DNA of 64,000 nt, from the NCBI GenBank assembly GCA_000999715.1, contig LCGL01000001.1, positions 195,139-259,138 of the forward strand. The letters are read 5' to 3'. The notes under the pieces are model-generated. The model did not search any database. It had not been told where the DNA came from and worked only from the letters and a program-made list of their open reading frames with translations. Below, piece after piece: positions 9,601 to 60,713 of this stretch; the first letter of the stretch is position 1; the number at the start of each line of letters is the position of its first letter. The DNA is from Candidatus Falkowbacteria bacterium GW2011_GWF2_43_32. Its GTDB lineage: Bacteria > Patescibacteriota > Patescibacteriia > Patescibacteriales > UBA12465. The position numbers were made by a program, and so were the translations under genes.

Positions 9601-11731
9601 CCTTGACCAAATTGGTTCCCCAAGTCGGCTTAACGCGCATCAACTCCGTACAGCCCTCGTCTTGAGCGCGACAAGTTCCCAAATTCTTGTTCAAATATAA
9701 ACTGGAAAGACCGTTCCAGGCAATCGTTCCGTCTACGGCATAATCACCGGACAAAGAATATTGCCGACAACCGGAAGTTTCCGGATTGCAAGTTCCATAG
9801 TCCAAAGTATTTTCCAAATAAGCGACGGTTTGACCAGAAACGGCATTGGTGAAAGCTTGGCAAGTATTATAAATCGGCTCGCAGGAATCCGCTTCAAAGC
9901 TCCAAACTCTTTTCTCTTGATTGCAATAACCGTAGACTTCGCAATCGCCGTTGTCCTTTTCTTTGATACAACTCTGCTCGTCGGCGCAATATTCTTCGGC
10001 GCGGAGAATATTCACTTCGCTGGAAATGCCGCCACTGCCGTCGGCCAGCGGAGTAATCGAAGGGGCACCGATAATCTGTGCGCCGACACCTTCCTTGGCG
10101 CAATAATTTAACGGCGCTTTCAATACCCAATTAGGATCAATCAATCCCTGACACCAAGCCTGATCGCGTGTATCAAATTCCGAACTGAATTGTGCATAAC
10201 CGTCCCCGGGATCGAAACAAGAAACTAAATCGTTCAAAGTCGCTTTGACGCTTTTGTTCGCCAAACTGGAAACGGCTTTCTCCCAGCCGACCGGCAAAAT
10301 GCGATACTTGCGTAAAATGGCAATATTGCGTTCGGTATAGCTGTTATTGTAGCTGTCACCCTTACTGTCAAGCGTAAATTGCCAATCGCCGTGCAAATAA
10401 CCGTTCTCCAAGGCTTCGGCCACGGTTTGCTTTTCGGAAATTCCTTGCATGAATTTGCTGTCAATCACGCAATCCGTCGGACCGGGATTATCCTTATTTA
10501 TACAGCTGGATAATTTTACCAAAATATCATAATTAGCCTGCGTATCAAACTTCGGTTGAATCAATTGACGGGTGATTTCTTTGACATTACCAACGCTATA
10601 TTGGGGAGAGCCTTCTTCGTCCCCGACCAAACCGGCGGTCACGGAGCCGGCGGTTTTGGTTTTCTTGCCCAATTCCTGCATCAAGCGATTGAATCCGGCA
10701 ATGCTCAATTGATTCAAAAATACATTGGCGGAGTCTACCAAAATATCGCCGGTCAAACGACCGAAATTTGCTTCTTGAATGGCCTGAGCTTGATCCAATT
10801 GTCTTTCCGCCTGACCGGGAATGCCGACTATACTGCCGGCGGCATCGGTTACATCCGCCCAACCTTTGTTGACGGTGAATTTCGTGTTGGCATTTTCCGT
10901 ATCAATAATCGCCTTACTGGATAAATCGGTACGGGCCAACAAATAAATGCCGAGATCGTTGGACACCGGATTGAAAATATTGGAAAAATCGTCAAGATAA
11001 TCTTTATTTTGCAAATCGGTGATTTTTTTATTGATATCCGTCTGCCAAGTCTTAACCATTTCCGAAGCGGTACAGTTAGGCGCCGGCGCGCGCGTCTGTT
11101 CTATCAAACCTAAACTGATTTTCAGTTTCGCCTCCAAGGACGAAGGACTGCAAACGTTAAAAGAAGGAGAGGCTTGCATATCCGATTGTATGCCACCGAC
11201 TTTACCTGAAGCACAGGCCGTATTTTGCTTATCGCAATTATCAAAACATCCCTGAAGCCTTATTAAGTCGCCGCTAATGGTCTCCTTACAGTTTTCCTGA
11301 CATTTCTTCAACTCATCTCCGCACTCCATCCCGGCGGTATTCAAATTATTGACAAAGCTTTCCACAAAGGTTCCGGCCGCTTCATCGCCGATTTGCGACA
11401 TATAGTCGCCGAAGTCCTGCGTGATATACAAAGGTTTTTGTCCACTGCCGGAAGCGGCGATATAATTGGCGGCATCGTAAGCGATTTTGTTGAGCGCCGT
11501 ACTGAGGGTGCGCTGAAAAGCGATGGAACCAGCTTTTTGCAAAGATCTGGCCACTATTCTTAAAAAAGTATTTTCAATATTAGCAATCGCCTGATTAAGA
11601 TCGAGCTGAGCTTGCGCCGGTTTGAGCGGCATAACCATCGTCGTCAACAACAAAAAACCCGCTAAAAAAATACCGGTTTTTCCAAGCAGATTGAAATTTT
11701 TTTTCTTTTTTGACACCAAAGAAAAATTCAT
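3695..11731 (-). CDS. Giant secreted or cell-surface Cys-rich protein (2678 aa) with three CBM4_9-like beta-sandwich modules and a PKD-like C-terminal domain
   Basis: A single uninterrupted ORF. The N-terminal signal/anchor is GIFLAGFLLLTTMVMPLKPAQAQ. I count about 94 Cys by hand. At least nine copies of C-x5-G-C-x-[EQR]-[FYLWM] occur, e.g. VCKAEAAGCNEF, TCRASENGCREY, LCEPAAAGCSEY. Three modules start like NLVKDADFANEE / SYDFENGLGSW / HFDFETNDGS and end like FYIKNLKFEV / FYLDNLILSE / VYFDDINIEP. They map to about nt 9115-9620, 7650-8130 and 5545-5940. The C-terminal IVIDWGDNSG...HAFYHYY...YIIKIKIVDNW (about 3698-3970) is PKD-like. Confidence 0.9.
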   Translation of the reverse strand: MNFSLVSKKKKNFNLLGKTGIFLAGFLLLTTMVMPLKPAQAQLDLNQAIANIENTFLRIVARSLQKAGSIAFQRTLSTALNKIAYDAANYIAASGSGQKPLYITQDFGDYMSQIGDEAAGTFVESFVNNLNTAGMECGDELKKCQENCKETISGDLIRLQGCFDNCDKQNTACASGKVGGIQSDMQASPSFNVCSPSSLEAKLKISLGLIEQTRAPAPNCTASEMVKTWQTDINKKITDLQNKDYLDDFSNIFNPVSNDLGIYLLARTDLSSKAIIDTENANTKFTVNKGWADVTDAAGSIVGIPGQAERQLDQAQAIQEANFGRLTGDILVDSANVFLNQLSIAGFNRLMQELGKKTKTAGSVTAGLVGDEEGSPQYSVGNVKEITRQLIQPKFDTQANYDILVKLSSCINKDNPGPTDCVIDSKFMQGISEKQTVAEALENGYLHGDWQFTLDSKGDSYNNSYTERNIAILRKYRILPVGWEKAVSSLANKSVKATLNDLVSCFDPGDGYAQFSSEFDTRDQAWCQGLIDPNWVLKAPLNYCAKEGVGAQIIGAPSITPLADGSGGISSEVNILRAEEYCADEQSCIKEKDNGDCEVYGYCNQEKRVWSFEADSCEPIYNTCQAFTNAVSGQTVAYLENTLDYGTCNPETSGCRQYSLSGDYAVDGTIAWNGLSSLYLNKNLGTCRAQDEGCTELMRVKPTWGTNLVKDADFANEEINDASSGGLLHDWYVSGSAVPTLTVVDAAKSPGGLSGKAMKVVSQAKSGRSSTANIVSNAAHSLLPDNFQTIFGQAYTVSVDVYLANADIVRLFAGPEGDGFIAPTTVKNSWQHLTITRPSDLAYSEPNFTISGAGSGQVVFYIKNLKFEVGGWDTDYNSYGYYSNDAPAQVYEKLLPAYLEEICYVNATGASKDYRLKNDAPAVCDDYARRCNKDEVGCELFSSVNDIFSVPAKALDSDYCRGECLNYDVYVTKESYFNSPRVENLIPETATVCKAEAAGCNEFTNLDALTQGGEQKEYYTSLKQCIKPSVTACASFYSWEGRGDGYQLKAYSLKKTAAGLPAVTADDSSLCNATIYNLPVNHPDFNPDCREFYNVSGAIAYHLLSRVITCSEDCHPYRLSEKNIDSSLNTSRKCAMAGRNDRYWDAATGDCYVCLNGGVWDNVNKACTYLAIPGEGQTCRASENGCREYNGNNGSNVRLIASYDFENGLGSWHSNCVGGVALSTIANSKDGHSLQYTDISSCGVDPGGNLVKTPLIKQILANEKVVAQIKVSGLVREKAAYSLKFLARAANQTSVQIYFLNPATDAVASFTATPLVLKAGNEWNVYQVNLAALDHAVGENEILAVSGSDEFYLDNLILSEITDRYYLLEESSQVPDTCYYDIFDDYQGSEYNLGCSQYTDRGGLKHNLRKFTQLCSDSAVGCEQMIETKNYTSPDEAYWLNGVAVESCDTDDQNCVAVAADSAVYAVYDPSRQCHAADLGCSRLGEGQVSSQITAWSDVFKRNNPNQYEQILCGPEDVGCEEWRDARGDSSYFKNPGFDACLYRTSRDPNISGKAWYKVPVKRCDSNGDGTINGAESGTAICAGNTDCGDKACVIDNNDYPCSVSYFKTIGWGGSGNQIPTPDQAVGLCEPAAAGCSEYIDPVSQFSVNSVANPSYQLTNEVAEGWGNTSGNSWNKTSLNETQQVIALKQNKLYSLSVSSNTDSAISGMVELDFSKTVRPLLADNTLGTATLNLEISDGLGQPIIFNSLNNSLARLSGGKTGITITVKELIIDYQHQESVNKTDCNGTVKLDNGCVLFNERVINGAAGLADLSTGWDAYATADGASPEVCDSTVAGSCTANQLIKVRPDRVCASWLDCVTYGLDAAGQKVCYALGECDRLDDKNECQHFVDPSETALTHQFDVNTDKNSAGYALLDRYYLGNMKEVGLDTEAHFDFETNDGSAPNGLFVLEPVEAPTDYPAHGRGYLGVPAKTQVTVGSSLLVEEGSYYYLNYLLNTKGTVLSATVTIQDADSEAVIAEFIDSARNGWERKVHRLNTGAHRNIKIVLSSDTTVYFDDINIEPVLQIANTGNEAFDYVAKDCRLYPNSTSLTCTSFNNNVVEDGLYGYCLQYDPLNPKVCAMWYPVDKLGFTGRSSQTLGYNGKFPLYYCTEADGDFQLVKKVQATAVKKWLDNEKDDCTGNACWDLKNRVGASFGCDHSDSDSDDYERYVYLKDALVEDYCVDTSSYKLISSREVSSNNKVRYVLYCVPKGDSSTRIAGPTILANQSNMIDMGDIADSSACVDEIEFLAYAWVPYSGSLVVTNLADDPPDDTVNNINESTNYDPPIAVFKTGMNHEGALKFFDTDDEDKQFKIQCNRFTQLVDSAGNNKAWVERVGPSSSLDNTPQFFLSYYGNILKYGRNREDVPFGAAILPSDTQLVGHAAINLRSQYSEANDILAGRPYGCSYGEAGCVNIGQCSGNLNVFCIYDPNTTQTVYEVNDKSCGDYGVCQRLWTTPLQTDIAHSKADNEKVLRNIFYKQYSHYSYLSSSGYQSASASASDLSFTWVGGSDSDAYPSLCSPTDSRVNPNSFCSVLPQIANVKMNGLPLSNGSATVKSSGVYVLSFNTTVDKEQQPLDHIVIDWGDNSGLQSVTGEDHRPDIATPHAFYHYYIKRDAPYIIKIKIVDNWDRWRCYLDDCP

Positions 11732-53220: not shown

Positions 53221-54534
53221 TTGCTGGGCGTTAAATCCCTGCGTTTATCGGGTCGTTTGCTTCTTAAGATTTCCCAAATCGGCGGCGGCTTTTTTCGTTT
53301 TCTTTTTAAAGGCATTCTTTATAGAATATTAGCGGAATTTTACTATGCTTTCTTTCGCTTTAAAAAAACTCCTCTGGCGGGCAAAACCCTGAATGAACTG
53401 TTTCACCATAAATCCGTCTATCTCTTTATTTTTACTTTGATCGCTCTATTAACCTTTTCCAATCTTATCCACCAAGATCGGGCCAATGCCTTGGAAACCA
53501 AAATTTCCAAAACTGTCATGGCCAAATTGGTAACTACGGACTTCAGCGCCTCGCCCGACGAAGAGTTGATTGAAGAGGTCGCCAGTCCTAACAGTTTCCT
53601 GATTGCCAATCAAGAGAAATATCTTGACCCTTCTTACACTTTAGACAAGCAAAGCGGCACAGTCATTTCCAACGAAACCAATGTCAACAATTTTCTGTCA
53701 TTCAGCAACGAAAAAGATTCGTTGTTCAAACCGCGAACTATCAGCGGCGTCGGCGACTTTATTCCGCAACGCGCGGAAATAGTTTATTACACCGTTCAAA
53801 ACGGAGATACGGTCAGCAGTATCGCCCGTCGTTTCGGTTTGACCGTCAACACCATCCTCTGGGCCAATAATTTAACCGCCTATAGTTTAATCCGTCCCGG
53901 CGACAGTTTGGTGATTTTGCCATATAGCGGTATATTATATACAGTGAAATCCGGCGATACCGTCAGCAAGATCGCTCGCTATTACGGTTTGGAAATTGAT
54001 AAAATTCTCAGCAGTAACAACCTGGGCGCCGATTTGAAAATAGGACAAAAAATTATTTTACCGGGAGCGAAAAAAATCACGCAATCGGCGGCCGTCACTC
54101 AATCGAACAATTATACCGGTTTAACGGCCATCCGCGACCTGATTAAAGCTCCGGCCGCCAAAACAAGCGGCAGTACGATGGCTTGGCCGACCAAGGGCAA
54201 CCGTATTACGCAGTATTTTTCCTGGCGTCACGCCGGTTTGGATATTGCCAATAAAATCGGCACGCCCTTGTACGCCGCCGATGATGGCGTCGTGATAACC
54301 GCGCAAGGCGGTTGGAACGGCGGATACGGCAACACTATTGTCATTGATCACGGCGGCGGCATCAAAACCCGCTACGGCCACGCTTCCAAGCTTTTTGTGA
54401 AAGTGGGCGATACGGTTCAAAAAGGCGAAAATATCGCCGCCATGGGATCGACCGGTCGCTCTACCGGCTCGCACTTGCACTTTGAAGTTTTGATTAATGG
54501 CGTCAGATACAATCCTCTTAATTATATAAGATAA
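53221..54534 (+). CDS. LysM-domain M23 metallopeptidase (peptidoglycan hydrolase)
   Basis: 437 aa with a TTG start per the track. Contains an N-terminal TM helix, two LysM repeats (YTVQNGDTVSSIARRFG and YTVKSGDTVSKIARYYG), and the M23 core HAGLDI...GNTIVIDHGGGIKTRYGH...GSTGRSTGSHLHFEV. Confidence 0.88.
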   Translation: MLGVKSLRLSGRLLLKISQIGGGFFRFLFKGILYRILAEFYYAFFRFKKTPLAGKTLNELFHHKSVYLFIFTLIALLTFSNLIHQDRANALETKISKTVMAKLVTTDFSASPDEELIEEVASPNSFLIANQEKYLDPSYTLDKQSGTVISNETNVNNFLSFSNEKDSLFKPRTISGVGDFIPQRAEIVYYTVQNGDTVSSIARRFGLTVNTILWANNLTAYSLIRPGDSLVILPYSGILYTVKSGDTVSKIARYYGLEIDKILSSNNLGADLKIGQKIILPGAKKITQSAAVTQSNNYTGLTAIRDLIKAPAAKTSGSTMAWPTKGNRITQYFSWRHAGLDIANKIGTPLYAADDGVVITAQGGWNGGYGNTIVIDHGGGIKTRYGHASKLFVKVGDTVQKGENIAAMGSTGRSTGSHLHFEVLINGVRYNPLNYIR

Positions 54535-54539
54535 ATATT

Positions 54540-54788
54540 ATGCCTTTTTTTCTCGGCTTATTGATTATCTTGGCCGGTCTCGGCTTGACCGTGAAGACCG
54601 AATGGTTTATAAATAACTTTGGAAGAATCGCCTGGTTTGAACAGAAACTAGGCAGTGAGGGCGGCTCTCGGCTCGGTTATAAACTGGTCGGTCTGACGGC
54701 CATTATCATCGGCATCATTGTCATGACCGGCGGAGGACAAGACCTTTTGGGCTGGATAACCAGTCCGTTCGTAAAATATAATCAATAG
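54540..54788 (+). CDS. Small two-helix membrane protein (hypothetical)
   Basis: 82 aa. It starts 6 nt after the M23 stop. Hydrophobic helices are FFLGLLIILAGLGLTV and LVGLTAIIIGIIVMTGG. Confidence 0.5.
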   Translation: MPFFLGLLIILAGLGLTVKTEWFINNFGRIAWFEQKLGSEGGSRLGYKLVGLTAIIIGIIVMTGGGQDLLGWITSPFVKYNQ

Positions 54789-54799
54789 CCAAAATAAAT

Positions 54800-54873
54800 G
54801 GGCCCTTAGCTCAGCTGGCTAGAGCACCTGCTTTGCAAGCAGGGGGTCATCGGTTCGAATCCGATAGGGTCCA
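54800..54873 (+). tRNA. tRNA-Ala (anticodon UGC); CCA is not encoded
   Basis: Hand-folded cloverleaf. Acceptor stem is GGGCCCT / AGGGTCC with the G3:U70 alanine identity pair. Anticodon stem is CCTGC / GCAGG with loop TTTGCAA. T-arm is ATCGG-TTCGAAT-CCGAT. The discriminator is A. Confidence 0.95.
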
Positions 54874-54885
54874 CAAACAAAGAAA

Positions 54886-54913
54886 ATTCCTAACGTATGT
54901 TAGGAATTTTTTT
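54886..54913 (+). terminator. Intrinsic terminator after tRNA-Ala
   Basis: 9-bp stem ATTCCTAAC / GTTAGGAAT with loop GTAT, followed by a run of 6 T. Confidence 0.7.
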
Positions 54914-54928
54914 GTTTATGATTCGTAG

Positions 54929-55090
54929 CTATCGGATTCGAACAGGCGGCGAGCGAAATAAAGGAGGAACGAAGTGACGACGAATATTTCGCGACGATAA
55001 ACGCGACCCGAGGGAGCGTTTAGCGGGTCCGCCGCGACAACGAGCGATGCGGCTGAGCATCGCGAGGCGGAAATCCGATAGGGTCCACCG
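54929..55090 (+). other. tRNA-Ala 3'-half-like sequence interrupted by a GC-rich, hairpin-dense insert of about 130 nt (element A)
   Basis: ATCGGATTCGAAC (54931..54943) mimics the tRNA T-arm ATCGGTTCGAATC. AATCCGATAGGGTCCAC (55072..55088) is an exact 17-nt copy of tRNA positions 54858..54874. Between them lie four hairpins: GCGAAATA / TATTTCGC, TAAACGC / GCGTTTA, GCGATGC / GCATCGC, and the enclosing CCGCC / GGCGG. Confidence 0.6.
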
Positions 55091-55096
55091 ACTAAT

Positions 55097-55125
55097 AAAA
55101 CTCCATAGAATATGGGGTTTTATTT
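55097..55125. terminator. Intrinsic terminator-like hairpin after element A
   Basis: CTCCATA-GAA-TATGGGG (one G:U pair), with AAAA upstream and TTTTATTT downstream. Confidence 0.5.
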
Positions 55126-55131
55126 ATTATA

Positions 55132-55159
55132 TTGACATTATTATAATTTTTGCTATAAT
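55132..55159 (+). promoter_or_regulatory. Near-perfect sigma70 promoter with an extended -10
   Basis: TTGACA (55132..55137), 16-nt spacer ending in TGC, then TATAAT (55154..55159). The 66-nt AT-only leader carries five TGTA(T/A)A repeats at 55159, 55179, 55189, 55208 and 55218, in phase at about 10 bp. It also carries the palindrome TACAA-TAT-TTGTA. Confidence 0.6.
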
Positions 55160-55225
55160 GTATATATTAATATAAAAATGTATAGATTTGTATAGTTTTA
55201 CAATATTTGTATATATTTGTAATAT

Positions 55226-55972
55226 ATGATAAATAATCAGAATAAATTAATAAAAATTAATGAAGCCGCAAAAATACTTAATATTTCCATACAAACATTA
55301 AGACGTTGGGATGAATCTGGGCGGCTTAAGGCTATCCGGGAAAACCAGAGAGGCCACCGCTATTATAAGTTTTCCGATATTCAACTAATGACGAACAATA
55401 TTTTTTCTTTAGCTGAAGAATGGATTTCAAGACAAACGGCCAGCGAGCCGGATAACCAATTTTTTTGTCTCGACAGCCCGACTTTTCAAGCTAGGCTCAG
55501 CCGCTTAGAAATGGCCATGCAAAAAATTCCTGAACTCAAAAAAGATTTTTCTTTTATCAGTTCAATGGTCGGGGAAATCGGCAATAACTCTTTTGATCAT
55601 AATTTGGGCTCTTGGCCAGATATTAGAGGTATCTTTTTCGCCTACGATTTAAATAAAAAACAAATTGTTTTGGCCGATAGAGGCCAGGGCATTCTAACCA
55701 CCCTTAAAAGAGTCCGGCCGGCCTTGATGAATGATGGCGAGGCCCTGCGCATGGCCTTTACGGAAAAAGTCTCTGGACGAGCTCCGGAGAACCGAGGAAA
55801 TGGCTTAAAATATGTTAAAAAAGTCGTGGTAGATATTAAAAAAGATATATCATTAAAATTATATTTCCAATCGGGCAATGCTTTTACTATTTTAGATGAT
55901 AAAACGATTAATCTAAAGATCGAACAAGCCGCTATACCCTTCCGAGGGTGTTTAGCTTTAATTAATTTTTAA
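55226..55972 (+). CDS. MerR/excisionase-type HTH fused to a minimal GHKL (RsbW/SpoIIAB-like) ATPase/kinase domain
   Basis: 248 aa. The N-terminus IKINEAAKILNISIQTLRRWDESGRLKAIRENQRGHRYY is an HTH. The C-terminus has the N-box GEIGNNSFDHN, the G1 box LADRGQGI and the G2 box NRGNGLKYV. Confidence 0.8.
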   Translation: MINNQNKLIKINEAAKILNISIQTLRRWDESGRLKAIRENQRGHRYYKFSDIQLMTNNIFSLAEEWISRQTASEPDNQFFCLDSPTFQARLSRLEMAMQKIPELKKDFSFISSMVGEIGNNSFDHNLGSWPDIRGIFFAYDLNKKQIVLADRGQGILTTLKRVRPALMNDGEALRMAFTEKVSGRAPENRGNGLKYVKKVVVDIKKDISLKLYFQSGNAFTILDDKTINLKIEQAAIPFRGCLALINF

Positions 55973-55976
55973 TAAT

Positions 55977-56264
55977 ATGCTCATTGAATTAAAAAAATTT
56001 GGCAATTTATTAACTTCTCGACAACTCGGAAAAGAATCTTTAGCCGCTCTGTCTCCTCAACTTCCTAAAGAAAATACTGAAAAAATTATTGTTGATTTTT
56101 CAGAAATTACAACTTTTTCTCCTTCCTGGGGAGACGAATTCCTGTCGCCTCTTCAACAAAAATATCAAAATAATTTATTCTTAAAAAATACTAATAATCC
56201 TTCGGTAAAAGCAACTATCGAAATTCTGGAAGAAACGAACCAAGTAAAATTTCAGGTAGAATAA
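55977..56264 (+). CDS. STAS-like small protein (DUF4325-type)
   Basis: 95 aa, starting 4 nt after the upstream stop. IIVDFSEITTFSPSWGDEFLSPL matches the 'D-F-x-x-V/I ... S-x-x-D-E-F/L' pattern of STAS-like DUF4325 proteins. Unverified. Confidence 0.65.
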   Translation: MLIELKKFGNLLTSRQLGKESLAALSPQLPKENTEKIIVDFSEITTFSPSWGDEFLSPLQQKYQNNLFLKNTNNPSVKATIEILEETNQVKFQVE

Positions 56265-56283
56265 AACTTTGCTCATCCTCCTT

Positions 56284-56332
56284 GCCCAATAATTAATTTC
56301 CCCAATAATTTTGTCTAAAGAGCGGGAAATCC
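56284..56332 (+). repeat. 49-bp direct repeat, copy 1
   Basis: GCCCAATAATTAATTTCCCCAATAATTTTGTCTAAAGAGCGGGAAATCC. It matches 58420..58468 at 48 of 49 positions. Confidence 0.95.
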
Positions 56333-56358
56333 ATTTTTTAATAACCACATAATAAAAT

Positions 56359-56384
56359 AACTCCACCCAAGTGGAGTTATTTTT
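56359..56384. terminator. Bidirectional terminator shared by the convergent island modules
   Basis: 8-bp stem AACTCCAC / GTGGAGTT with loop CCAA, with A/T runs on both sides. Confidence 0.6.
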
Positions 56385-56408
56385 CTATTTATAAATAAAT
56401 TTGAACAA

Positions 56409-57278
56409 TTATTCCGACTTATGCAACAATTCATAAAATTCCGCCAACTCATTAACCTTATCAGGATCCAGAAACATTTCTTCTTGCGGCCGGTCTTGAT
56501 TATCAAAACTAATTTTTAATTCTTTAAATTCGCCGTTATCATCAGTTTGAATATCAACATTATAAGAATCGGACGGATCAAATTCGCCTCCTATTTCTTT
56601 AATATCATTAAAACCAATTTTCCCCTTATCGCCGTTCTTAACCACTAAAGCTTGTTGCAATAAAAATTCCATTGTTCCACCATGAGTGCCGGCCGGTAAT
56701 AAAACTTTTGACCCCGAGTTCAATTTTTTAGCCATTGCTTGATAATGTTTAACTACATAGGCGAAAGAACCGGCTATTTCCTTTTTGTATTGAACGGCCT
56801 CGGGAGTAGAAAGACCTATTAAATAATTAACTGTGGCCATTTGGGCTTTCTTAGCAGCAACTATTTTTTCGGCATCGGCTAATTCGTCAAAATTATCCGG
56901 TAAATTTTTATTATAAATTTCGGTATGGTTGTAAGGCCTCGGTGAAACTAATTTTTCATAACTTAAAATATCGTTAACTCTGGTTTTAAATTTTTCATCA
57001 CCGGCAATTTCGGTGGCATAAATATCAGTCGTTTCTAAAGCCCTGCCCATTTTAATATCTTCTTTAATCGGGGAGGCATTGGAACCAATAGCTTTGACAG
57101 CATCAAAATCGTCCTGTTTTATACCGCTTTCAACCGCTTTTCTTTTTGTGATATCTCGGCCTAAGTCTAATAACTGCAAATCTTTTCCACGTTCACCGTG
57201 GCGCATAAATTTAATTAATATTTTTACATTTCGTCCGAATCTTTCCTGTTGTTCTAATCCGTTATTTATTCTTTCCAT
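56409..57278 (-). CDS. Histidine phosphatase superfamily (branch 1) protein, divergent
   Basis: 289 aa. LIKFMRHGERG carries the RHG catalytic motif, and LLPAGTHGGTMEF carries the second catalytic His. Otherwise it is unlike the canonical gpmA in this window. Confidence 0.72.
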   Translation of the reverse strand: MERINNGLEQQERFGRNVKILIKFMRHGERGKDLQLLDLGRDITKRKAVESGIKQDDFDAVKAIGSNASPIKEDIKMGRALETTDIYATEIAGDEKFKTRVNDILSYEKLVSPRPYNHTEIYNKNLPDNFDELADAEKIVAAKKAQMATVNYLIGLSTPEAVQYKKEIAGSFAYVVKHYQAMAKKLNSGSKVLLPAGTHGGTMEFLLQQALVVKNGDKGKIGFNDIKEIGGEFDPSDSYNVDIQTDDNGEFKELKISFDNQDRPQEEMFLDPDKVNELAEFYELLHKSE

Positions 57279-57293
57279 AAAATTACTTACTTA

Positions 57294-58346
57294 TTATTTT
57301 TCCTTAATAATTTTTATGATACCGTTATCAGCGTCAACTTCAACTTCATCACCGTTTTTTAAGATTTGCGTGGCTGTTTTTGTTCCGATAACACAAGGAA
57401 TTTTTAACTCTCGAGAAATAATCGCCGCATGGCAAGTCAAACCGCCCTCATCGGTAATAATCGCACCGCATTTTCTAATTAAAGGCATTAACTCCGGACT
57501 AGTACTGGTCGAAACTAAAATATCTCCTTTATTAAAAGTTAGGGATTTAATTTCGTTAGTTATTATTAAGCGCACTATGCCCCGGACTAATCCGCCACAA
57601 GCGACATTTCCCTTAATAATACCAACTGATTTAGTATTTCCCTCTATTTTCTTAATAATTTTAGTCGGATCTTTTACCCAATCAACTTTTTCCACACCAT
57701 TAAGATTTTTATAGACAAAAAATTTGCCTTTATTTGAATCTGAAATCCTTTTTTGCAAATTAATATTTTTTTTGCTTAATATCTCATTTAAAGTGAGGAA
57801 ATTAACTTCCTCTTTATTTTTTAAGCCAGCTAATTTTAATTCTTTAAACGCCAACGGTATAACAACCTTATTTATCACTCTTTCATAATAGGAAACCATC
57901 CTTAATTTCTTAACTAAATTAAAAATTTTTCTATCCTTGGCTGTTTCCGTCAAGGCGTCGCCAGATCGGAAAGGCAAAACCGTACAAAGCAAAGACAATT
58001 CAATTAAAAAATCAACGGCTGATTTAAAATTTTTAAAATCATTTTTCTTAATTGCCAAGATTGCTCTTTCGTTTAAAGCCAAACCCTTTTTTAATAACCT
58101 TTCTAGCTTACTTCTCTTTTTTAAAACTAAATTACTAAAAGTCAGAAAAAGCTTCTTTTGCTCGTTTTTGTCCCGGTAATACCTTACCATTCCTTTCGGA
58201 TATTCAACCATTAAACAATTCTTGACGTTTGCCCCGGCTATCTGTCGGCACTGTTTTGAAAGATACCATTCGTGCCACAAAGAAGTCCCAAAAAGAGTAA
58301 ACGGCCTAGCAATATATAATTCCCAGTTTTTGTCCTTAATGTCCAT
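57294..58346 (-). CDS. Protein with a C-terminal PEP-utilizing-enzyme mobile (phosphohistidine swivel) domain and an unassigned helical N-terminal region of about 250 aa
   Basis: 350 aa. The C-terminus GDILVSTSTSPELMPLIRKCGAIITDEGGLTCHAAIISRELKIPCVIG matches the swivel-domain signature GGxTxHAAIxxRExxIPxVxG. No ATP-grasp or PEP-binding TIM-barrel motifs were seen. Confidence 0.78.
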   Translation of the reverse strand: MDIKDKNWELYIARPFTLFGTSLWHEWYLSKQCRQIAGANVKNCLMVEYPKGMVRYYRDKNEQKKLFLTFSNLVLKKRSKLERLLKKGLALNERAILAIKKNDFKNFKSAVDFLIELSLLCTVLPFRSGDALTETAKDRKIFNLVKKLRMVSYYERVINKVVIPLAFKELKLAGLKNKEEVNFLTLNEILSKKNINLQKRISDSNKGKFFVYKNLNGVEKVDWVKDPTKIIKKIEGNTKSVGIIKGNVACGGLVRGIVRLIITNEIKSLTFNKGDILVSTSTSPELMPLIRKCGAIITDEGGLTCHAAIISRELKIPCVIGTKTATQILKNGDEVEVDADNGIIKIIKEK

Positions 58347-58365
58347 AGATGTATAATTATCTTTT

Positions 58366-58393
58366 ATTATAGCAAAATCCGGCTATTTTTCAA
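58366..58393 (-). promoter_or_regulatory. Near-consensus sigma70 promoter with an extended -10 for the swivel/phosphatase pair
   Basis: The minus strand reads TTGAAA, a 16-nt spacer ending in TGC, then TATAAT. It lies 19 nt upstream of the ATG at 58346. Confidence 0.55.
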
Positions 58394-58419
58394 TGAAAAT
58401 TTTATTATCCAAAACCCCC

Positions 58420-58468
58420 GCCCAATACTTAATTTCCCCAATAATTTTGTCTAAAGAGCGGGAAATCC
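58420..58468 (+). repeat. 49-bp direct repeat, copy 2
   Basis: GCCCAATACTTAATTTCCCCAATAATTTTGTCTAAAGAGCGGGAAATCC, with one mismatch to copy 1. It continues directly into element B. Confidence 0.95.
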
Positions 58469-58540
58469 GCGTTTAAACGACCACAAACAACGAGCCGCGC
58501 AGTGCGCGGCGAGGGCAAAATGCCCCTAGAGACTACCAAA
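58452..58540 (+). repeat. Element B: a diverged copy of the 3' part of element A
   Basis: The shared order is hairpin ending in GCGTTTA, then CAACGAGC, a second hairpin, GCGAGG, then AAAT.CC..TAG.G.C.ACC. The second hairpin is GCGATGC/GCATCGC in A and CCGCGC/GCGCGG in B, so the sequence differs but pairing is kept. Confidence 0.5.
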
Positions 58541-58568
58541 AAACATCCGGCAATAATTAGCCGGATGT
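58538..58568 (-). terminator. Intrinsic terminator of the fic gene
   Basis: 9-bp stem ACATCCGGC / GCCGGATGT with an 8-nt loop, followed by TTTTTT on the minus strand. It lies 18 nt past the fic stop. Confidence 0.7.
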
Positions 58569-58585
58569 TTTCAAATAAATAAATC

Positions 58586-59614
58586 CTATTTTAACTTATA
58601 ATAAGTCGCCTTACCTTTACCAACTTTTTCGATAATTCCGTCAGCTATCAATTTTCTAAAATCTAAATTCCTGGTTGGCTTGGCGCGATCAGTTAAGGCG
58701 GAATAATCTCTATCGGTGATATAACCTCTCTTTTTTATATAAGCAATGATCTTTTGATGATATTCTTTCAATTCTTTTCCTGGAGAATTATTTTCTTTTT
58801 CCAATTCTTTATTGACTCGTAAAAGTTCATCAATAATGCCGTCGGTAAAATATTCTAACCAAGGGGTAAGCTCAATTCTATCTTTAATTTCATAATAATT
58901 TCCCAAAACTCCAACTTCTTGAAAATAGCGGCTAACATTTTGATTATAATAATTTTCAAAACTGAAAAGATAAAAAGTATCGAGACCCATTTTGGCCAAT
59001 AATATCTTGGTGGCTAACCTGGCAGTTCGTCCATTACCATCCACGAAGGGATGTATAACAACAAATTGCTTATGAAAAATACCGGCTAAAATTAAAGGAT
59101 CTACTATATTCTTATTTTTATCAAGATAAAAAAATAGTTCTTTAAGCAATTTCTCCACTTCTTGATAATCTGGAGGCAAATAAACAGTTTGGCGTGTTTT
59201 AGGATTGTTAACAAAAACCGGTTCTTGACGAATTTTTCCGCAACGATAGTGCTCAATTAATCCCGCGGTAATTGTCTGCTGAATATGCGATATTAATTTT
59301 GTATCAAAAACTTCTTGACCGGATTTAATCAGAGCGTTTAATTCAACCAAAGCTTTGTTATAATTTAAAACTTCTTTTTCGCTGTCTCTGGCATTCTCCG
59401 GACTATTTTTTAAAATCCTCTTTACATCCGTCAACGGTAAAGGATTGCCTTCGATGCTGGTTGAAGAAAAAGCCGAAACTTCACGAGCTCGCTGCTCCAT
59501 ATTTAACAAAACTATGCGCGAAAAATTGCGATTATTAAGCTCGCTAATAATTTCACTAATTCTTTTAATATTAGCCAATAATTTATTAGAAATTGTATAT
59601 CTGGGGTTAAACAT
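58586..59614 (-). CDS. fic: Fic-domain protein (class II type with an N-terminal autoinhibitory motif) and a C-terminal winged-helix-like region
   Basis: 342 aa. The Fic core is HPFVDGNGRTARL (HxFx[DE]GNGRxxR). Upstream, SSTSIEGN fits the inhibitory (S/T)xxxE(G/N) motif. Confidence 0.9.
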   Translation of the reverse strand: MFNPRYTISNKLLANIKRISEIISELNNRNFSRIVLLNMEQRAREVSAFSSTSIEGNPLPLTDVKRILKNSPENARDSEKEVLNYNKALVELNALIKSGQEVFDTKLISHIQQTITAGLIEHYRCGKIRQEPVFVNNPKTRQTVYLPPDYQEVEKLLKELFFYLDKNKNIVDPLILAGIFHKQFVVIHPFVDGNGRTARLATKILLAKMGLDTFYLFSFENYYNQNVSRYFQEVGVLGNYYEIKDRIELTPWLEYFTDGIIDELLRVNKELEKENNSPGKELKEYHQKIIAYIKKRGYITDRDYSALTDRAKPTRNLDFRKLIADGIIEKVGKGKATYYKLK

Positions 59615-59624
59615 ATATAGTCAT

Positions 59625-59653
59625 ATTATAGACGATTATTAGACGATTGTCAA
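59625..59653 (-). promoter_or_regulatory. Perfect sigma70 consensus promoter for fic, with direct repeats in the spacer
   Basis: The minus strand reads TTGACA-ATCGTCTAATAATCGTC-TATAAT with a 17-nt spacer. The -10 hexamer ends only 10 nt before the fic ATG and no SD is present. A third ATCGTCT copy lies just upstream (59664..59672 on the plus strand). Confidence 0.65.
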
Positions 59654-59723
59654 TAAATATAATAAGACGATAATGCCCCGGTGACCGCTAATTATTTGTA
59701 ACCGTAAATATCTTGAGAAACAA

Positions 59724-60713
59724 TCAATAAGCCAAAGCGATAATTTTGTTCAACAGTTCCCGGTAACTCATCCCTTGATCCATCATCAACATCGGAAACA
59801 TGGAAATATCGGTAAAACCCGGCAAACTGTTTATTTCATTGAGGTAAATTTTATTTTTGGCTATCAAGAAATCCACGCGGGCAAAACCGCGACAATCGGC
59901 CAAACGATAAGCTCTGGCCGCCAACGCTCTTATTTTCTCCGTTTGCGTCGGGTCGATCGCGGCGGGAACAATCATCTGCGCTTCTCCCTTCTTATATTTG
60001 TCATCGTAATCGTAAAAATCTTTAGCGAGTCGCAGTTCTCCCGGTCGAGAAACCAATAATTTTTCGTTGCCCAAGACCGCCACCTCGATTTCCCGAGGAT
60101 TGACCAAGCCTTCTTCAATGACGATTTTTTTATCATGCTTCAGGGCATTCTTGACGGCCGTCGCCAATTGCGCCGGCTTGGTTATTTTACTGATGCCCAC
60201 CGAAGAACCGGAATTGGCCGGTTTGACATAAAGCGGAAATTTAAAATCACGACAAGCTTTATTCCGGCGACGAAGCAACTCCGCTGAAGAATCAATTTGG
60301 TAATCCAAAACAGCATATCCGGTTTGATTAATTTTATCCGCCGTCAGCAAATTCTTGAAAATCGCCTTATCCATACAAACCGCCGAACTCAAAACTCGGC
60401 AACCGCAATATTTTATTTTCTGACTGTCCAAAACCGCCTGCAAAATGCCGTCTTCGCCATAACGACCGTGCGTCATCAGCAAAGCGACATCAAACAAACG
60501 GGAAAAATCTTCAACCCCGATTCTGTTCTTCGCCGATATTTTTAATTTATCGATATTCTTGATTTTATAAAATCGCCGATCTTTTTTATGCCAATAAATT
60601 AAAATCAGTTTATAACGACCGTAATCAAAATACTTGACGACATTGCCGGCGGACATAATGGACACTTCATGCTCATTGCTCGGCCCGCCAAAAAATAAAG
60701 CGATGGTTTTCAT
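59724..60713 (-). CDS. ddl: D-alanine--D-alanine ligase
   Basis: 329 aa. Contains IALFFGGPSNEHEVS, YVKPANSGSSVGISK and NEINSLPGFT. Confidence 0.93.
   Translation of the reverse strand: MKTIALFFGGPSNEHEVSIMSAGNVVKYFDYGRYKLILIYWHKKDRRFYKIKNIDKLKISAKNRIGVEDFSRLFDVALLMTHGRYGEDGILQAVLDSQKIKYCGCRVLSSAVCMDKAIFKNLLTADKINQTGYAVLDYQIDSSAELLRRRNKACRDFKFPLYVKPANSGSSVGISKITKPAQLATAVKNALKHDKKIVIEEGLVNPREIEVAVLGNEKLLVSRPGELRLAKDFYDYDDKYKKGEAQMIVPAAIDPTQTEKIRALAARAYRLADCRGFARVDFLIAKNKIYLNEINSLPGFTDISMFPMLMMDQGMSYRELLNKIIALAY

Follow-up and report, generated by a model that had tools for sequence, protein, structure and literature searches.

In Falkowbacteria-like Patescibacteria, a clade-wide, integrase-free chromosomal hotspot for accessory genes occupies the interval from tRNA-Ala(UGC) to ddl/polA. 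In the window, which is the whole stretch of 64,000 nucleotides analysed here, the region from tRNA-Ala to ddl is a horizontally acquired AT-rich island, comprising about 4.6 kb of foreign low-GC DNA. The hotspot sits in a groundwater Patescibacteria (CPR) genome, and its border element is apparently undescribed.

The acquired island behind tRNA-Ala

The island is framed on the left by a tRNA gene with a variant T-stem (ATCGG/CCGAT) and on the right by ddl, which is followed by polA at 60821:

54800..54874, +, tRNA-Ala(UGC), conserved left anchor of the hotspot (ARAGORN; Rfam tRNA, 69.7 bits)
54880..54913, +, terminator hairpin of tRNA-Ala (repeat search and terminator scan), at the centre of an inverted repeat with 34-nt arms (54853-54886 / 54910-54943)
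59724..60713, -, ddl, first right-hand gene with core composition (Pfam; GC3 0.49)

The sequence-only reading had proposed that the composition turns AT-rich directly after the tRNA gene and reverts just before ddl, and windowed GC, GC3 and tetranucleotide distance all bear this out. GC stays at 0.31-0.37 across about 55100-59750, against 0.457 ± 0.026 outside the island; GC3 is 0.20-0.37 in the island genes and 0.49-0.57 in the flanking genes; and the tetranucleotide L1 distance of the island is 0.441, about 8.7 sd away from the 0.162 ± 0.032 (maximum 0.265) of the 98 other windows. No amelioration gradient across the island genes was found by GC3. Elsewhere in the window, a single 1-kb stretch goes down to GC 0.348.

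A hypervariable locus in related genomes

In about 20 genomes, the locus is syntenic and consists of an M23 peptidase gene, a gene for an 82-aa membrane protein, tRNA-Ala(UGC), variable genes and polA; ddl orthologs (64-69% identity) lie beside polA in relatives L009, L010, L037, L059 and L307. The variable interval can be as short as 14 bp and as long as 8.4 kb. As the sequence-only reading had anticipated, variable alleles exist, including one in which ddl follows tRNA-Ala after only 168 bp (L010, the sole relative given as empty), and many gene sets occupy the site in other genomes. An identical five-gene island without variants in all close strains is already contradicted at the species level. 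The alternative cargo includes type III R-M, MazF-Panacea, PLD, SNase, AntA, helicases and HD proteins, as well as a Rep protein, transporters, Mur/Ddl paralogs, nucleases and housekeeping genes. Conflict or defence genes are common at this locus in relatives, as had been suggested; however, a large part of what relatives carry there is of housekeeping type, which makes the label of a defence island only partly apt, and PADLOC recognises Fic alone as a known defence gene in the island itself. The reported lack of mobility genes also holds: about 25 alleles of the locus yielded neither an integrase nor a transposase, and a search here from about 11.7 kb in the window to about 6.7 kb past its end (about -43/+10 kb) turned up no gene for a recombinase or transposase and none of phage type.

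Three insulated cassettes

The five island genes are organised as follows; the labels originally given to their products hold by Pfam, predicted structure, family profiles and PADLOC:

55132..55159, +, cassette 1 promoter, TTGACA, 16 nt, TG, TATAAT, followed by repeated TGTATA motifs (promoter scan)
55226..55972, +, cassette 1 gene 1, MerR-type HTH fused to a GHKL (Bergerat-fold) ATPase domain, 248 aa (Pfam MerR; AF2; Foldseek)
55977..56264, +, cassette 1 gene 2, DUF4325 STAS-like protein, 95 aa (Pfam PF14213)
56409..57278, -, cassette 2 gene 2, divergent histidine-phosphatase-superfamily protein with RHG and HGG motifs, 289 aa (family profile vs PDB)
57294..58346, -, cassette 2 gene 1, 350-aa protein with C-terminal PEP-utilizer phosphohistidine swivel domain (Pfam PF00391, 9.8e-26)
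58366..58393, -, cassette 2 promoter, TTGAAA, 16 nt, TG, TATAAT (promoter scan)
58545..58575, unstranded, hairpin terminator downstream of fic (read by eye; conserved with L313-316)
58586..59614, -, cassette 3, class II Fic AMP-transferase of SoFic type, 342 aa (Pfam Fic; PADLOC SoFic)
59625..59653, -, fic promoter, consensus 12/12 (promoter scan)

In cassette 1, the C-terminal domain of the 248-aa protein adopts a predicted GHKL fold (AF2 pLDDT 84.5), and its top Foldseek matches are all GHKL ATPases, namely the ATPase domains of TRAP1/Hsp90, GyrB and TopoII. N-box, G1 and G2 residues are invariant in the HTH-GHKL family, which has more than 5,200 homologs, and the N-terminal HTH shows a weak excisionase/IS607-type similarity. 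The pairing with DUF4325 recurs in L011, L006, L046 and L310, and the promoter region is kept in L011 and L006; the two proteins may constitute a partner-switching-type sensor/regulator pair. In cassette 2, NCBIfam places the 350-aa protein with the C-termini of PEP-synthase-like and rifampin-phosphotransferase-like proteins, and a 76% homolog stands at the same locus in L307. The 289-aa protein has no direct Pfam match, yet its family profile retrieves phosphoglycerate-mutase-type phosphatases from the PDB (3.4e-5), 10 of 34 relatives match His_Phos_1, and R26, H27, R79 and H199 are nearly invariant; together, the two would form a phosphoryl-relay pair. In cassette 3, Fic matches the PADLOC SoFic model over its full length (2.4e-45) and FICD and SoFic in the PDB, carries the active site HPFVDGNGRTAR and an N-terminal inhibitory motif S-x-x-x-E-G, and belongs with more than 120 clusters from many Patescibacteria, whose identity to it is 73-91%. 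This AMPylase may act as a toxin-like abortive-infection effector.

These are three separately insulated, self-contained expression cassettes, each of which is found on its own in other genomes, and the earlier division into HTH-GHKL/STAS, phosphatase/swivel and fic units is thus confirmed. The claimed promoters and hairpin terminators are confirmed as well: each unit is directly preceded by one of the three top promoter matches of the scan (12/12 at 55132, +; 12/12 at 59653, -; 11/12 with TG at 58393, -), the terminator scan gave hairpins at 54880, 55094 and 56354, and the 58545-58575 hairpin was read by eye. Homology blocks stop cleanly at the cassette borders, that of fic ending at 59663, and other cassette orders and orientations occur in L046, L310, L311 and L307. 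Moreover, between genomes the cassette proteins show higher conservation than those of the core: HTH-GHKL/STAS identity to L011 and L006 is 79-89% against 61% for M23 and 71-76% for PolA, the PEP-utilizer protein reaches 76% in L307 against 64% for Ddl, and Fic keeps 84-91% identity in genomes whose other genes differ.

It could be argued that the region is native, consisting of ancestral, fast-evolving, weakly expressed AT-rich genes with incidental repeats, since Patescibacteria genomes are compositionally patchy and one 1-kb stretch elsewhere in the window reaches GC 0.348. This explanation is barely credible, and is effectively refuted by locus variability and composition: the site is empty in one allele and differently filled in many others, the same cassettes are also low in GC relative to their hosts in L011 (0.396 vs 0.505) and L006, and the cassette proteins surpass core proteins in conservation.

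Element E and its tRNA-derived ends

A non-coding element, here termed E, lies between the tRNA terminator and cassette 1:

54928..55088, +, element E, GC-rich, structured, 160 nt (covariance model R1, 125 bits, E = 1.6e-28)
55094..55124, +, second terminator hairpin, directly 3' of E (terminator scan)

Both ends of E derive from the tRNA. The left end (54929-54943), which had gone unnoticed, is an inverted copy of the T-loop and the 3' strand of the T-stem, and the right end (55072-55088) repeats the tRNA 3' end in direct orientation; this 17-mer, AATCCGATAGGGTCCAC, occurs exactly at 54858 and 55072, as had been reported, and extends to 33 nt at 85%. E folds with z = -3.2, its family alignment has 89.6% of cells paired versus 37-45% in slid controls, and RNA-type covariation is seen in 37 of 44 base pairs. 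It matches no model in Rfam 15 and was not detected as a tRNA or tmRNA. Across genomes, E always comes after a tRNA gene and its terminator, follows at least eight tRNA species, and carries in each copy the sequence of its own tRNA, inverted copy included. The 17-mer is kept exact by selection or concerted evolution: the tRNA-derived 16-19-mer is exact at 12/12 E loci, while at nine of the 12 identity falls to 45-70% over the 40 nt that follow.

These ends bear on the proposal that tyrosine-integrase elements inserted serially, by accretion, at a tRNA attB, with integrases lost or supplied in trans (CIME-like) and with E and D1 (described below) as attR/attL remnants. The block from the T-loop to the tRNA 3' end is reportedly the typical identity block of tRNA-targeting integrases in the Williams 2002 classification, and the direct repeat here spans exactly that block without mismatch. 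Tandem E arrays after one tRNA (L220, L232, L224), a duplicated block of 72 nt in L083 that takes in the terminator, and the excisionase/IS607-type similarity of the cassette 1 HTH point the same way, and an integrase might lie elsewhere in the 418-kb contig and act in trans. Nevertheless, such accretion is unlikely: no integrase turned up in about 25 locus alleles or within 50 kb here, the exact repeat encloses just 214 bp of non-coding structured DNA and no gene module, that DNA shows RNA-type covariation, E accompanies at least eight tRNA species with matching ends, and a tRNA-derived end that stays exact while its flanks diverge is unlike the behaviour of a scar.

D1 repeats and an E remnant

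The inner borders of the island carry further repeats:

56284..56349, +, D1a, tail GGGAAATCC-N12-CCAC, between cassettes 1 and 2 (repeat search)
56344..56384, unstranded, CCAC, spacer and bidirectional terminator (terminator scan; homology to L005)
58420..58485, +, D1b, between cassette 2 and fic (repeat search)
58483..58544, +, E-type remnant (3' part) fused to a tRNA-Glu(CUC)-like 3' end ...GCCCCTAGAGACTACCA (alignment to L232)
59672..59690, +, formerly a third tRNA copy, not supported as a tRNA-derived repeat (score 10; just outside the fic homology block)

The 66-nt direct repeat D1 (56284-56349 and 58420-58485, 89% identity), previously overlooked, brackets cassette 2 with a 40-nt exact core and a period of 2136 bp. 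Assemblies at k=31 break at this core, and only a 2166-nt Logan contig (2136 + 30 nt) hints that the cassette may occur in circles or in tandem. Conserved copies of D1 occur in L009, L042 and L059 (same locus) and in L277 and L310. The segment 56344..56384 is homologous to the sequence directly after tRNA-Ala in L005 (local score 51, z = 15.1), and the D1 tail with its terminator looks like a fossil tRNA-Ala 3' junction, a resemblance that favours accretion.

The sequence-only reading had taken decaying copies of the tRNA-Ala 3' end as the partitions of the island. Neither of the two further copies resembles that end: the copy at 58518-58537 has a local score of 8 and that at 59672-59690 one of 10, where shuffled islands give a best score of 16.5 ± 1.9, and the latter is at chance level. 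The former, though, is more than noise; it lies within the E remnant, whose alignment with the E element and tRNA-Glu tail of L232 gives z = 10.2 and which falls under the covariance-model threshold because it is truncated. The partitioning sequences do not form a tRNA-Ala decay series; the idea nonetheless comes close in its spirit, given the likeness of D1 to a displaced tRNA-Ala 3' junction.

Alternatively, E, perhaps with D1, might be the end of a new non-autonomous mobile element that targets the conserved tRNA T-loop, for example with the help of an RNA guide or of a hairpin in single-stranded DNA, and that ferries or seeds cassettes, the island being its product. The termini of E, as inverted and direct copies of the host T-loop/T-stem, track even rare variants (L224, TCCGATT); units keep a constant size of 185-224 nt and also occur in tandem; E remnants lie at a cassette border in the window; and a D1-terminator-E unit, present in L310 and L009, adjoins an IS200-type Y1 transposase gene in L310. 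This origin is quite improbable, given that no protein is consistently linked to E, 64 kb hold only one full E by the covariance model, the transposase adjacency is one case, and viral contigs gave no match. IS200/IS605 elements are not known to make a target duplication, which also counts against it.

Probable independent exchange of cassettes

The explanation that probably holds is a hotspot in which cassettes are gained, lost and swapped independently of one another, likely by RecA-type recombination via flanks or boundary sequences. DNA uptake would most likely be followed by such recombination in either of two ways: the conserved flanks could lead to allelic replacement, or short conserved boundary sequences common to many clade genomes could permit Campbell-type insertion and deletion. 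Two kinds of boundary would serve, E (160 nt) and D1 (66-75 nt, duplicated here around cassette 2). Homologous recombination over 40-70-nt repeats is inefficient in model bacteria, which counts against this route. The island, the hotspot, the autonomy of the cassettes, the repeats and the structure of E are observed; the route, the order of arrival and all biochemical roles above are inferred from them.

Comparison with known systems

At the level of single cassettes, cassette 1 resembles RsbW/SpoIIAB-RsbV/SpoIIAA (GHKL kinase and STAS antagonist) in that a small GHKL ATPase gene immediately precedes a small STAS-like gene, but here the GHKL protein also contains a MerR/excisionase-type HTH as a fusion, the STAS protein is of the DUF4325 family and no sigma factor is nearby. 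Similarly, Fic shares with the single-gene anti-phage SoFic system (PADLOC/DefenseFinder; PMC12249575) a full-length model match, the canonical Fic motif, the inhibitory motif at the N-terminus and, at the C-terminus, a winged-helix region; it differs in lacking a small downstream 'AS1'-like ORF before the terminator and in its unusual conservation (73-91%) over very divergent Patescibacteria.

E, like tRNA-linked structured RNAs and tRNA mimics (tmRNA, tRNA-like 3' ends, tRNA 3' external transcribed spacer RNAs), lies in a tRNA trailer region and has a tRNA-identical strand that takes in the T-stem, the acceptor 3' strand and, at its end, the discriminator base. In contrast to these, the acceptor-stem 5' strand is absent or decayed in most copies, and the T-loop position is taken by a five-helix core some 125 nt long.

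With tRNA-gene islands built by CIME/ICE accretion, the locus shares its tRNA 3' location, a direct repeat from the T-loop, tandem build-up and integrase-free units; however, no integrase was found at the locus in about 25 genomes, and the repeat, which is maintained and not decaying, bounds a 214-bp non-coding structured element rather than the island. Core defence hotspots (P. aeruginosa cDHS, PMC10250203; E. coli hotspot catalogue, PMC10121019) have the same fixed position between conserved core genes, highly variable and partly defensive cargo, some empty sites and no mobility genes inside. Here, by comparison, the host is a CPR bacterium with a reduced genome, a tRNA gene serves as the anchor, the cargo mixes defence, signalling and housekeeping genes, and the cassette borders bear conserved non-coding E and D1, which are undescribed for those hotspots. 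Overall, the locus is an integrase-free variable hotspot with unusual boundary elements.

Composition and borders of the island

The switch to AT-rich DNA after tRNA-Ala(UGC) (54800-54874), the sole tRNA gene within the 64-kb window, is real and strong. GC falls to 0.31–0.37 over about 55100-59750, the minimum of the window, versus 0.457 ± 0.026 elsewhere, and GC3 is 0.20–0.37 in the five island genes versus 0.49–0.57 in the genes for the M23 peptidase, the 82-aa membrane protein, Ddl and PolA. A windowed tetranucleotide check gives an island-to-rest distance of 0.441, versus 0.162 ± 0.032 (maximum 0.265) in 98 equal-sized control windows; the site, a tRNA gene 3′ end followed by DNA of deviant composition, is that of a tRNA-associated genomic island. 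The sequence-only reading had partitioned this island by progressively decaying att scars of tRNA-Ala. Its exact 17-mer of the tRNA 3′ end is present at 54858 and, 214 bp downstream, at 55072, and this repeat encloses a 160-nt element (E, 54928-55088) alone, not the island; no significant tRNA-Ala-like repeat lies near ddl at the far border. The two further copies that it proposed (copies 2 and 3) score 8 and 10 against the tRNA-Ala 3′ end, versus a best chance score of 16.5 ± 1.9 in shuffled island sequence. Instead of a decay series, the borders are formed by E, by an E remnant with a tRNA-Glu-type tail, and by a duplicated 66-nt repeat (D1a and D1b). Nucleotide homology with other genomes stops exactly at the cassette borders, in the following blocks:

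54871-55088, element E
55092/55145 to 56252/56270, cassette 1 (MerR-HTH-GHKL protein and DUF4325/STAS protein)
57288-58405, gene of the swivel protein (cassette 2, with a phosphatase-like protein)
58408-58491, D1b
58578-59663, fic (cassette 3)
59730, core sequence resumes

Each of the three units has its own promoter, the three best sigma-70-type matches of the region lying directly upstream of them (12/12, 12/12 and 11/12 with TG), and hairpin terminators set the units apart. No recombinase was found from about 11.7 kb in the window to 6.7 kb past the window end (about −43/+10 kb around the island). The island and its modular, insulated, recombinase-free make-up, as first described, are confirmed, and the island is of a known kind, a variable/defence hotspot. 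Elsewhere in the window, a 2,678-aa ORF (3695-11731, minus strand) lacks a recorded Pfam family and precedes a gene for a 208-aa protein that faintly matches the TSP3 repeat; the ORF is read as a giant surface-type protein, typical of CPR genomes.

The tRNA-Ala-polA locus in related genomes

A polA-anchored scan of species-representative genomes returned 80 loci, and in about 20 of them an M23 peptidase gene, a gene for a small membrane protein and tRNA-Ala(UGC) precede, in this order, a variable interval and polA. The distance from tRNA to polA is 14 bp in L033, 18 bp in L031 and 104 bp in L014 (L-numbers denote loci fetched from relatives or metagenomes), 0.5–1.9 kb in seven genomes, and 3–8.4 kb in ten. 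An empty-site allele, of the kind that the first reading proposed to look for, exists in L010 (tRNA-Ala, 168 bp, ddl). Conserved core genes flank variable content throughout the clade, with L010, L014, L031 and L033 empty or minimal. The alternative alleles carry the following cargo.

Alternative cargo of the tRNA-Ala-polA locus
L013, L037: HD protein
L059: type III restriction-modification system
L009, L006: MazF with Panacea antitoxin
L028: PLD nuclease, AntA, TfoX
L026: staphylococcal-type nuclease
L046: superfamily-1 helicases
L042: rolling-circle Rep protein with ABC ATPase
Further alleles: transporters, SDR, Mur-ligase/Ddl paralogs

Defence-type genes (type III restriction-modification, MazF-Panacea, PLD, staphylococcal-type nuclease, AbiEii, SoFic) are mixed among this cargo with housekeeping-type genes, and neither an integrase nor a transposase was found in about 25 alleles of the locus.

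The Rep protein of L042 (4239-5093, minus strand) is a rolling-circle replication initiator of the REP_ORF2-G2P, filamentous-phage/plectrovirus type, and its position within the tRNA-Ala-to-polA interval hints at an integrated single-stranded-DNA element. The tRNA-Ala of the source genome (54846-54874) bears a compensatory T-stem variant, ATCGG/CCGAT, in place of the AAGGG/CCCTT found otherwise (compared with L005, L011, L013, L037, L046 and L307); the variant is common to L046, whose tRNA is 100% identical, and L307. Unlike several relatives, this gene has no encoded CCA (…CCACAAAC), and the copy in E reads …CCACC.

Autonomy of the cassettes

Cassette 1 lies directly after tRNA-Ala in L011, is inverted in L046, is found off-site in L006, beside MazF-Panacea, and in L310 lies beside fic. 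Its proteins are 79–89% identical to those of L011 and L006, compared with 61% for M23 and 71–76% for PolA, and in L011 too it is low in GC relative to its host (0.396 versus 0.505); for the HTH-GHKL protein, over 5,200 homologs were found. Similarly, the swivel protein is 76% identical in L307, while Ddl of that genome is 64% identical; there, its gene comes after a tRNA-Ala of the same variant and is accompanied by another swivel paralog and by a partner gene other than that of the window, at a locus that contains no E, cassette 1 or fic. Fic relatives form more than 120 clusters at 73–91% identity, all of 342–343 aa, in Patescibacteria whose PolA is 45–75% identical, and L311 likewise has fic at its tRNA-Ala locus. 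By BLAST, the island matched nothing in phage and plasmid collections, and no Fic relative was found in viral contigs.

Three further loci bear on the distribution of these families. The L310 island combines a helicase, MazF-Panacea, Fic and HTH-GHKL/STAS. A contig classed as viral (L317; IMG/VR UViG_3300022555_001665, 8.2 kb) encodes a 52% homolog of the HTH-GHKL protein. L306 (GCA_028707065.1, JAQTUZ010000006.1) contains an array of PEP-utilizer swivel paralogs, with six called genes and more suggested by tblastn, accompanied by a PPDK_N protein and a 54% homolog of the 289-aa phosphatase-like protein; the array suggests that the swivel family is expanded and diversifying in some Patescibacteria.

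Element E

The 17-mer at 55072 is the 3′ end of E, which is GC-rich. Read 5′ to 3′, the tRNA and a terminator hairpin are followed by an inverted copy of the T-loop and T-stem 3′ strand (CTATCGGATTCGAAC), a five-helix core, a direct copy (AATCCGATAGGGTCCAC) and a second terminator. The window holds one full copy. Of the 137 tRNAs in the fetched loci, 13 are followed after 40–210 nt by a near-exact duplicate of their own 3′ end, not always in the architecture of E; a metagenome scan with a conserved hairpin motif added further copies of E. E is found after tRNA-Ala(UGC), Ala(CGC), Gly(GCC), Gly(UCC), Ser, Arg, Glu and Val, in some loci as tandem arrays of 214–218-nt units, and both of its ends (inverted left, direct right) follow the host tRNA, rare T-loop variants included (L224).

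Starting from 10 copies, a covariance model also finds more distant members of the family. Compensatory changes back the secondary structure, with 89.6% of cells paired versus 37–45% when partners are slid, double substitutions in 37 of 44 base pairs, and the observed values reached by 0 of 500 shuffles, in an alignment that is fitted to the model and with a signal equally expected from single-stranded DNA. E is a structured element, acting as RNA or as single-stranded DNA, two forms that sequence does not tell apart. Moreover, the tRNA-derived 16–19-mer is exact in 12 of 12 loci, while the next 40 nt are only 45–70% identical in 9 of the 12; exactness beside diverged flanks indicates a maintained part of E rather than a decaying scar.

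These features bear directly on the main rival explanation, accretion at the tRNA by an integrase that was since lost or acts in trans. The span of the repeat, from the T-loop to the tRNA 3′ end, and the tandem arrays of E would both fit such an enzyme; however, no integrase was found across the roughly 25 alleles, E shows covariation within its fold, and the repeat is kept exact. As a third possibility, E and D1 could belong to a new non-autonomous mobile element. Compared with a MITE or an insertion-sequence-derived element, E has inverted termini (10–15 nt) and a direct repeat (≥ 16 nt), both of which are copied from the host tRNA, and is present as one full copy in the 64-kb window. In L310 a gene for an IS200/IS605-type Y1 transposase (10136-10468, plus strand, 110 aa, possibly truncated) lies beside a D1-terminator-E unit (10534-10831, minus strand), although this adjacency is a single case and only a lead.

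Several known categories were considered for E and set aside. A loose viral-contig pattern (TCGAACRGGCRG...CGAG) gave chance matches only, in GC-rich phages, and a stricter pattern none; hence these contigs offer no evidence for E as a phage attP. A known Rfam family is not indicated, as Rfam 15 (tRNA, tmRNA, group I/II introns and ribozymes included) gave no match to 54000-60500 at an E-value ≤ 5, nor to 18 E-bearing loci at the gathering threshold. A tmRNA or tRNA-like minihelix would require the acceptor-stem 5′ strand, which is mostly missing, and ARAGORN calls nothing at E. A retroviral-type primer-binding site is disfavoured because the T-loop and T-stem, rather than the 3′-terminal 18 nt, are the pairing partners of the inverted copy. 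No integron integrase is present for an attC site, whose core-site consensus we take to fit the sequence poorly. Finally, a group I intron is contradicted by the intact tRNA and the small size of E; such introns in Patescibacteria lie in the anticodon loop of otherwise undetected tRNAs (PMC13011429).

Literature searches for a prior description of E gave nothing relevant, and E appears to be new to the literature. A tentative proposal, which we regard as possible but rather doubtful, is that E represents an undescribed tRNA-templated structured RNA class or RNA-like mobile module of Patescibacteria and would serve, with D1, as landing pad and insulator for integrase-free exchange of defence and signalling cassettes. 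The proposal builds on the position of E, behind a tRNA gene's terminator and after at least eight tRNA species, on the closure of its fold by the inverted T-loop/T-stem copy, and on its terminal exact copy of the tRNA 3′ strand, taken to be kept by selection.

Some related sequences were encountered as well. Helix P4 of E is a hairpin, ACGCGACC-NN-AGGGAGCGTT, with a tandem G-A/G-A internal loop; the same hairpin lies within an unrelated ~90-nt element (...TAACGTGCGGTTAACCTGCCGACGCGGGAA[hairpin]TGGGCCCCGCG...GAACCGCTTGTTA) and in several GC-rich settings, in the metagenome loci L213, L219, L222, L226, L228, L243, L245, L261, L267, L288 and others, and may be a reusable RNA or protein-binding module. 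Other duplications of tRNA 3′ ends comprise a partial tRNA copy whose T-loop contains a 65-nt insert of two hairpins (TTTCCGCTCAT...), after both the Gly and the Phe genes of L047, and, in L064 and L019/L034/L041, three 60-nt tandem repeats of a tRNA-Gly tail and a 'GGGGC-TTC-GCCCC-TTCGA' type. The 11 nt to the left of E (54920-54930, GATTCGTAGCT) are identical to the 5′ terminus of tRNA-Val(GAC) in L277 (GGATTCGTAGCTCAG), the tRNA after which the nearest relative of this E stands, suggesting that this copy or its ancestor was once at a tRNA-Val gene.

The D1 repeat and the E remnant

D1a (56284-56349) and D1b (58420-58485), which had escaped the sequence-only reading, form a 66-nt direct repeat with 89% identity and a 40-nt exact core that brackets cassette 2 with a period of 2136 bp; in short-read assemblies of this population made with k=31, contigs end exactly at this core. 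The consensus, (AAAAACTCC)GCCCAATACTTAATTTCCTCAATAATTTCGTCTAAAGAGTTGGAAATCCGTTTTTTAACGACCAC, is followed by an A-rich spacer and a terminator. At this locus D1 is found in L009, L042 and L059; L277 and L310 carry copies too, and diverged ones lie on both sides of fic in L313-316. Its tail has the layout of the tRNA/E junction (GGAAATCC ... CCAC, spacer, terminator). The CCAC and terminator after D1a match the sequence following tRNA-Ala in L005 (z = 15), the L277 D1 flank resembles that same L005 flank when compared by eye, and in L310 and L009 D1 replaces the tRNA in a D1-terminator-E unit homologous to the tRNA-terminator-E unit of the window (z = 72). Because of these three likenesses, D1 is at best read as a putative fossil tRNA-Ala 3′ junction turned into a shared boundary element.

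On its reverse strand (56284-56366, 58420-58485), D1 contains a short ORF (VVVKKRISNSLDEIIEEIKYWAEFL..., 25–35 aa), broken in D1b, which in the copies of L009, L042, L059, L277, L310 and L313 diverges directly past the conserved part. These copies lack a consistent ribosome-binding site and show no clear constraint at the protein level; the ORF could encode a small protein or be what remains of the N-terminal part of a lost gene.

After D1b, the window retains only the last ~60 nt of an E element, probably because its interior was deleted between AACAAC microhomologies. The remnant ends in a tRNA-like tail (GCCCCTAGAGACTACCA), the former copy 2, which matches the tRNA-Glu(CUC)-linked E of L232 (z = 10.2), not tRNA-Ala; against the window's own E, by sequence only, it reaches a non-significant z = 1.8, so that the L232 comparison is the sole significant one. 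A tail of this type implies that the stretch was formerly located after a tRNA-Glu gene of another genome. Copy 3 falls immediately beyond the fic homology block and is indistinguishable from chance.

Proposed exchange of cassettes

On an island of foreign composition, with independent cassettes, conserved boundary elements, repeats around E and cassette 2 and no nearby recombinase, in a clade-wide hotspot with an empty site, cassettes are probably exchanged by homologous or short-homology recombination. Such recombination would use the conserved sequence on either side (tRNA/M23 on the left, ddl/polA on the right) together with the E and D1-terminator sequences that genomes share, with DNA possibly supplied by uptake or by circular intermediates. 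In Logan run SRR29904083, a 2166-nt contig carries exactly cassette 2, and 2166 equals the D1 period of 2136 plus k−1 (30); judged from its size, this contig is a hint of a circular or tandem form of the cassette.

Cargo proteins

The functions of the cargo are assigned from protein families. The gene labels GHKL, DUF4325/STAS, swivel and Fic of the first reading hold, and that of histidine phosphatase holds at family-profile level only; of the five proteins, which it placed among those typical of defence islands, PADLOC recognises Fic and none of the other four. SoFic is a toxin-like AMPylase that gives abortive-infection defence. The Fic protein has an intact HxFx(D/E)GNGRxxR motif (HPFVDGNGRTAR) in a SoFic-type architecture, an inhibitory S-x-x-x-E-G motif at its N-terminus, a match to the PADLOC SoFic model (2.4e-45 over residues 12–339) and PDB matches to SoFic and FICD, while its score against the NCBIfam SoFic equivalog is 64 bits, below the 550-bit cutoff; it is a putative SoFic-type abortive-infection effector. 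In E. coli, a small antitoxin is encoded downstream of SoFic (PMC12249575), whereas the source genome has no small antitoxin-like ORF between fic and its terminator.

The 248-aa protein has a GHKL/Bergerat fold (AF2 pLDDT 84.5), its top 50 Foldseek PDB matches are all GHKL ATPases, and the N-box, G1 and G2 motifs are invariant across 30 homologs. DUF4325/STAS and the swivel domain have Pfam matches. By analogy, the HTH-GHKL and DUF4325/STAS pair resembles RsbW-RsbV-type partner switching, with a fusion to a DNA-binding domain in addition; a search of the literature for earlier accounts of the DUF4325 pair gave nothing relevant. The 289-aa protein belongs to histidine phosphatase superfamily branch 1, with R26, H27 and H199 nearly invariant. 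It has no direct Pfam match itself, PF00300 is matched by 10 of 34 relatives, and its single-sequence AlphaFold model (pLDDT 37.5) is unusable; the identity comes from profile searches, in which the family profile matches PDB phosphoglycerate-mutase-family proteins at 3.4e-5. In PEP-synthase-like and rifampin-phosphotransferase-like enzymes, the counterpart of the swivel protein is the C-terminal phosphohistidine domain region, and the pairing of the swivel protein with a histidine phosphatase suggests a phosphoryl-relay switch.

Significance and comparison with known hotspots

The CPR/Patescibacteria have tiny genomes and few recognisable mobile elements, and the acquisition and shuffling of their accessory and anti-phage genes are therefore poorly understood. 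The present locus offers a concrete case for comparison: a hotspot anchored at a tRNA gene, where an empty-site allele stands beside at least 20 alternative ones, no recombinase is found and the three cassettes are more conserved across the phylum than core genes. The HTH-GHKL/STAS and His-phosphatase/swivel pairs are abundant, uncharacterised candidates for CPR conflict or regulatory systems. Element E is the most interesting lead; if confirmed, it would add a widespread structured RNA/DNA family tied to tRNA 3′ ends, and whether tRNA-derived boundary elements guide cassette exchange would become testable. Given its variable content and its lack of integrases and transposases, the tRNA-Ala-polA locus departs from a classical integrase island and behaves like the core-genome variable/defence hotspots described previously (PMC10250203, PMC10121019).
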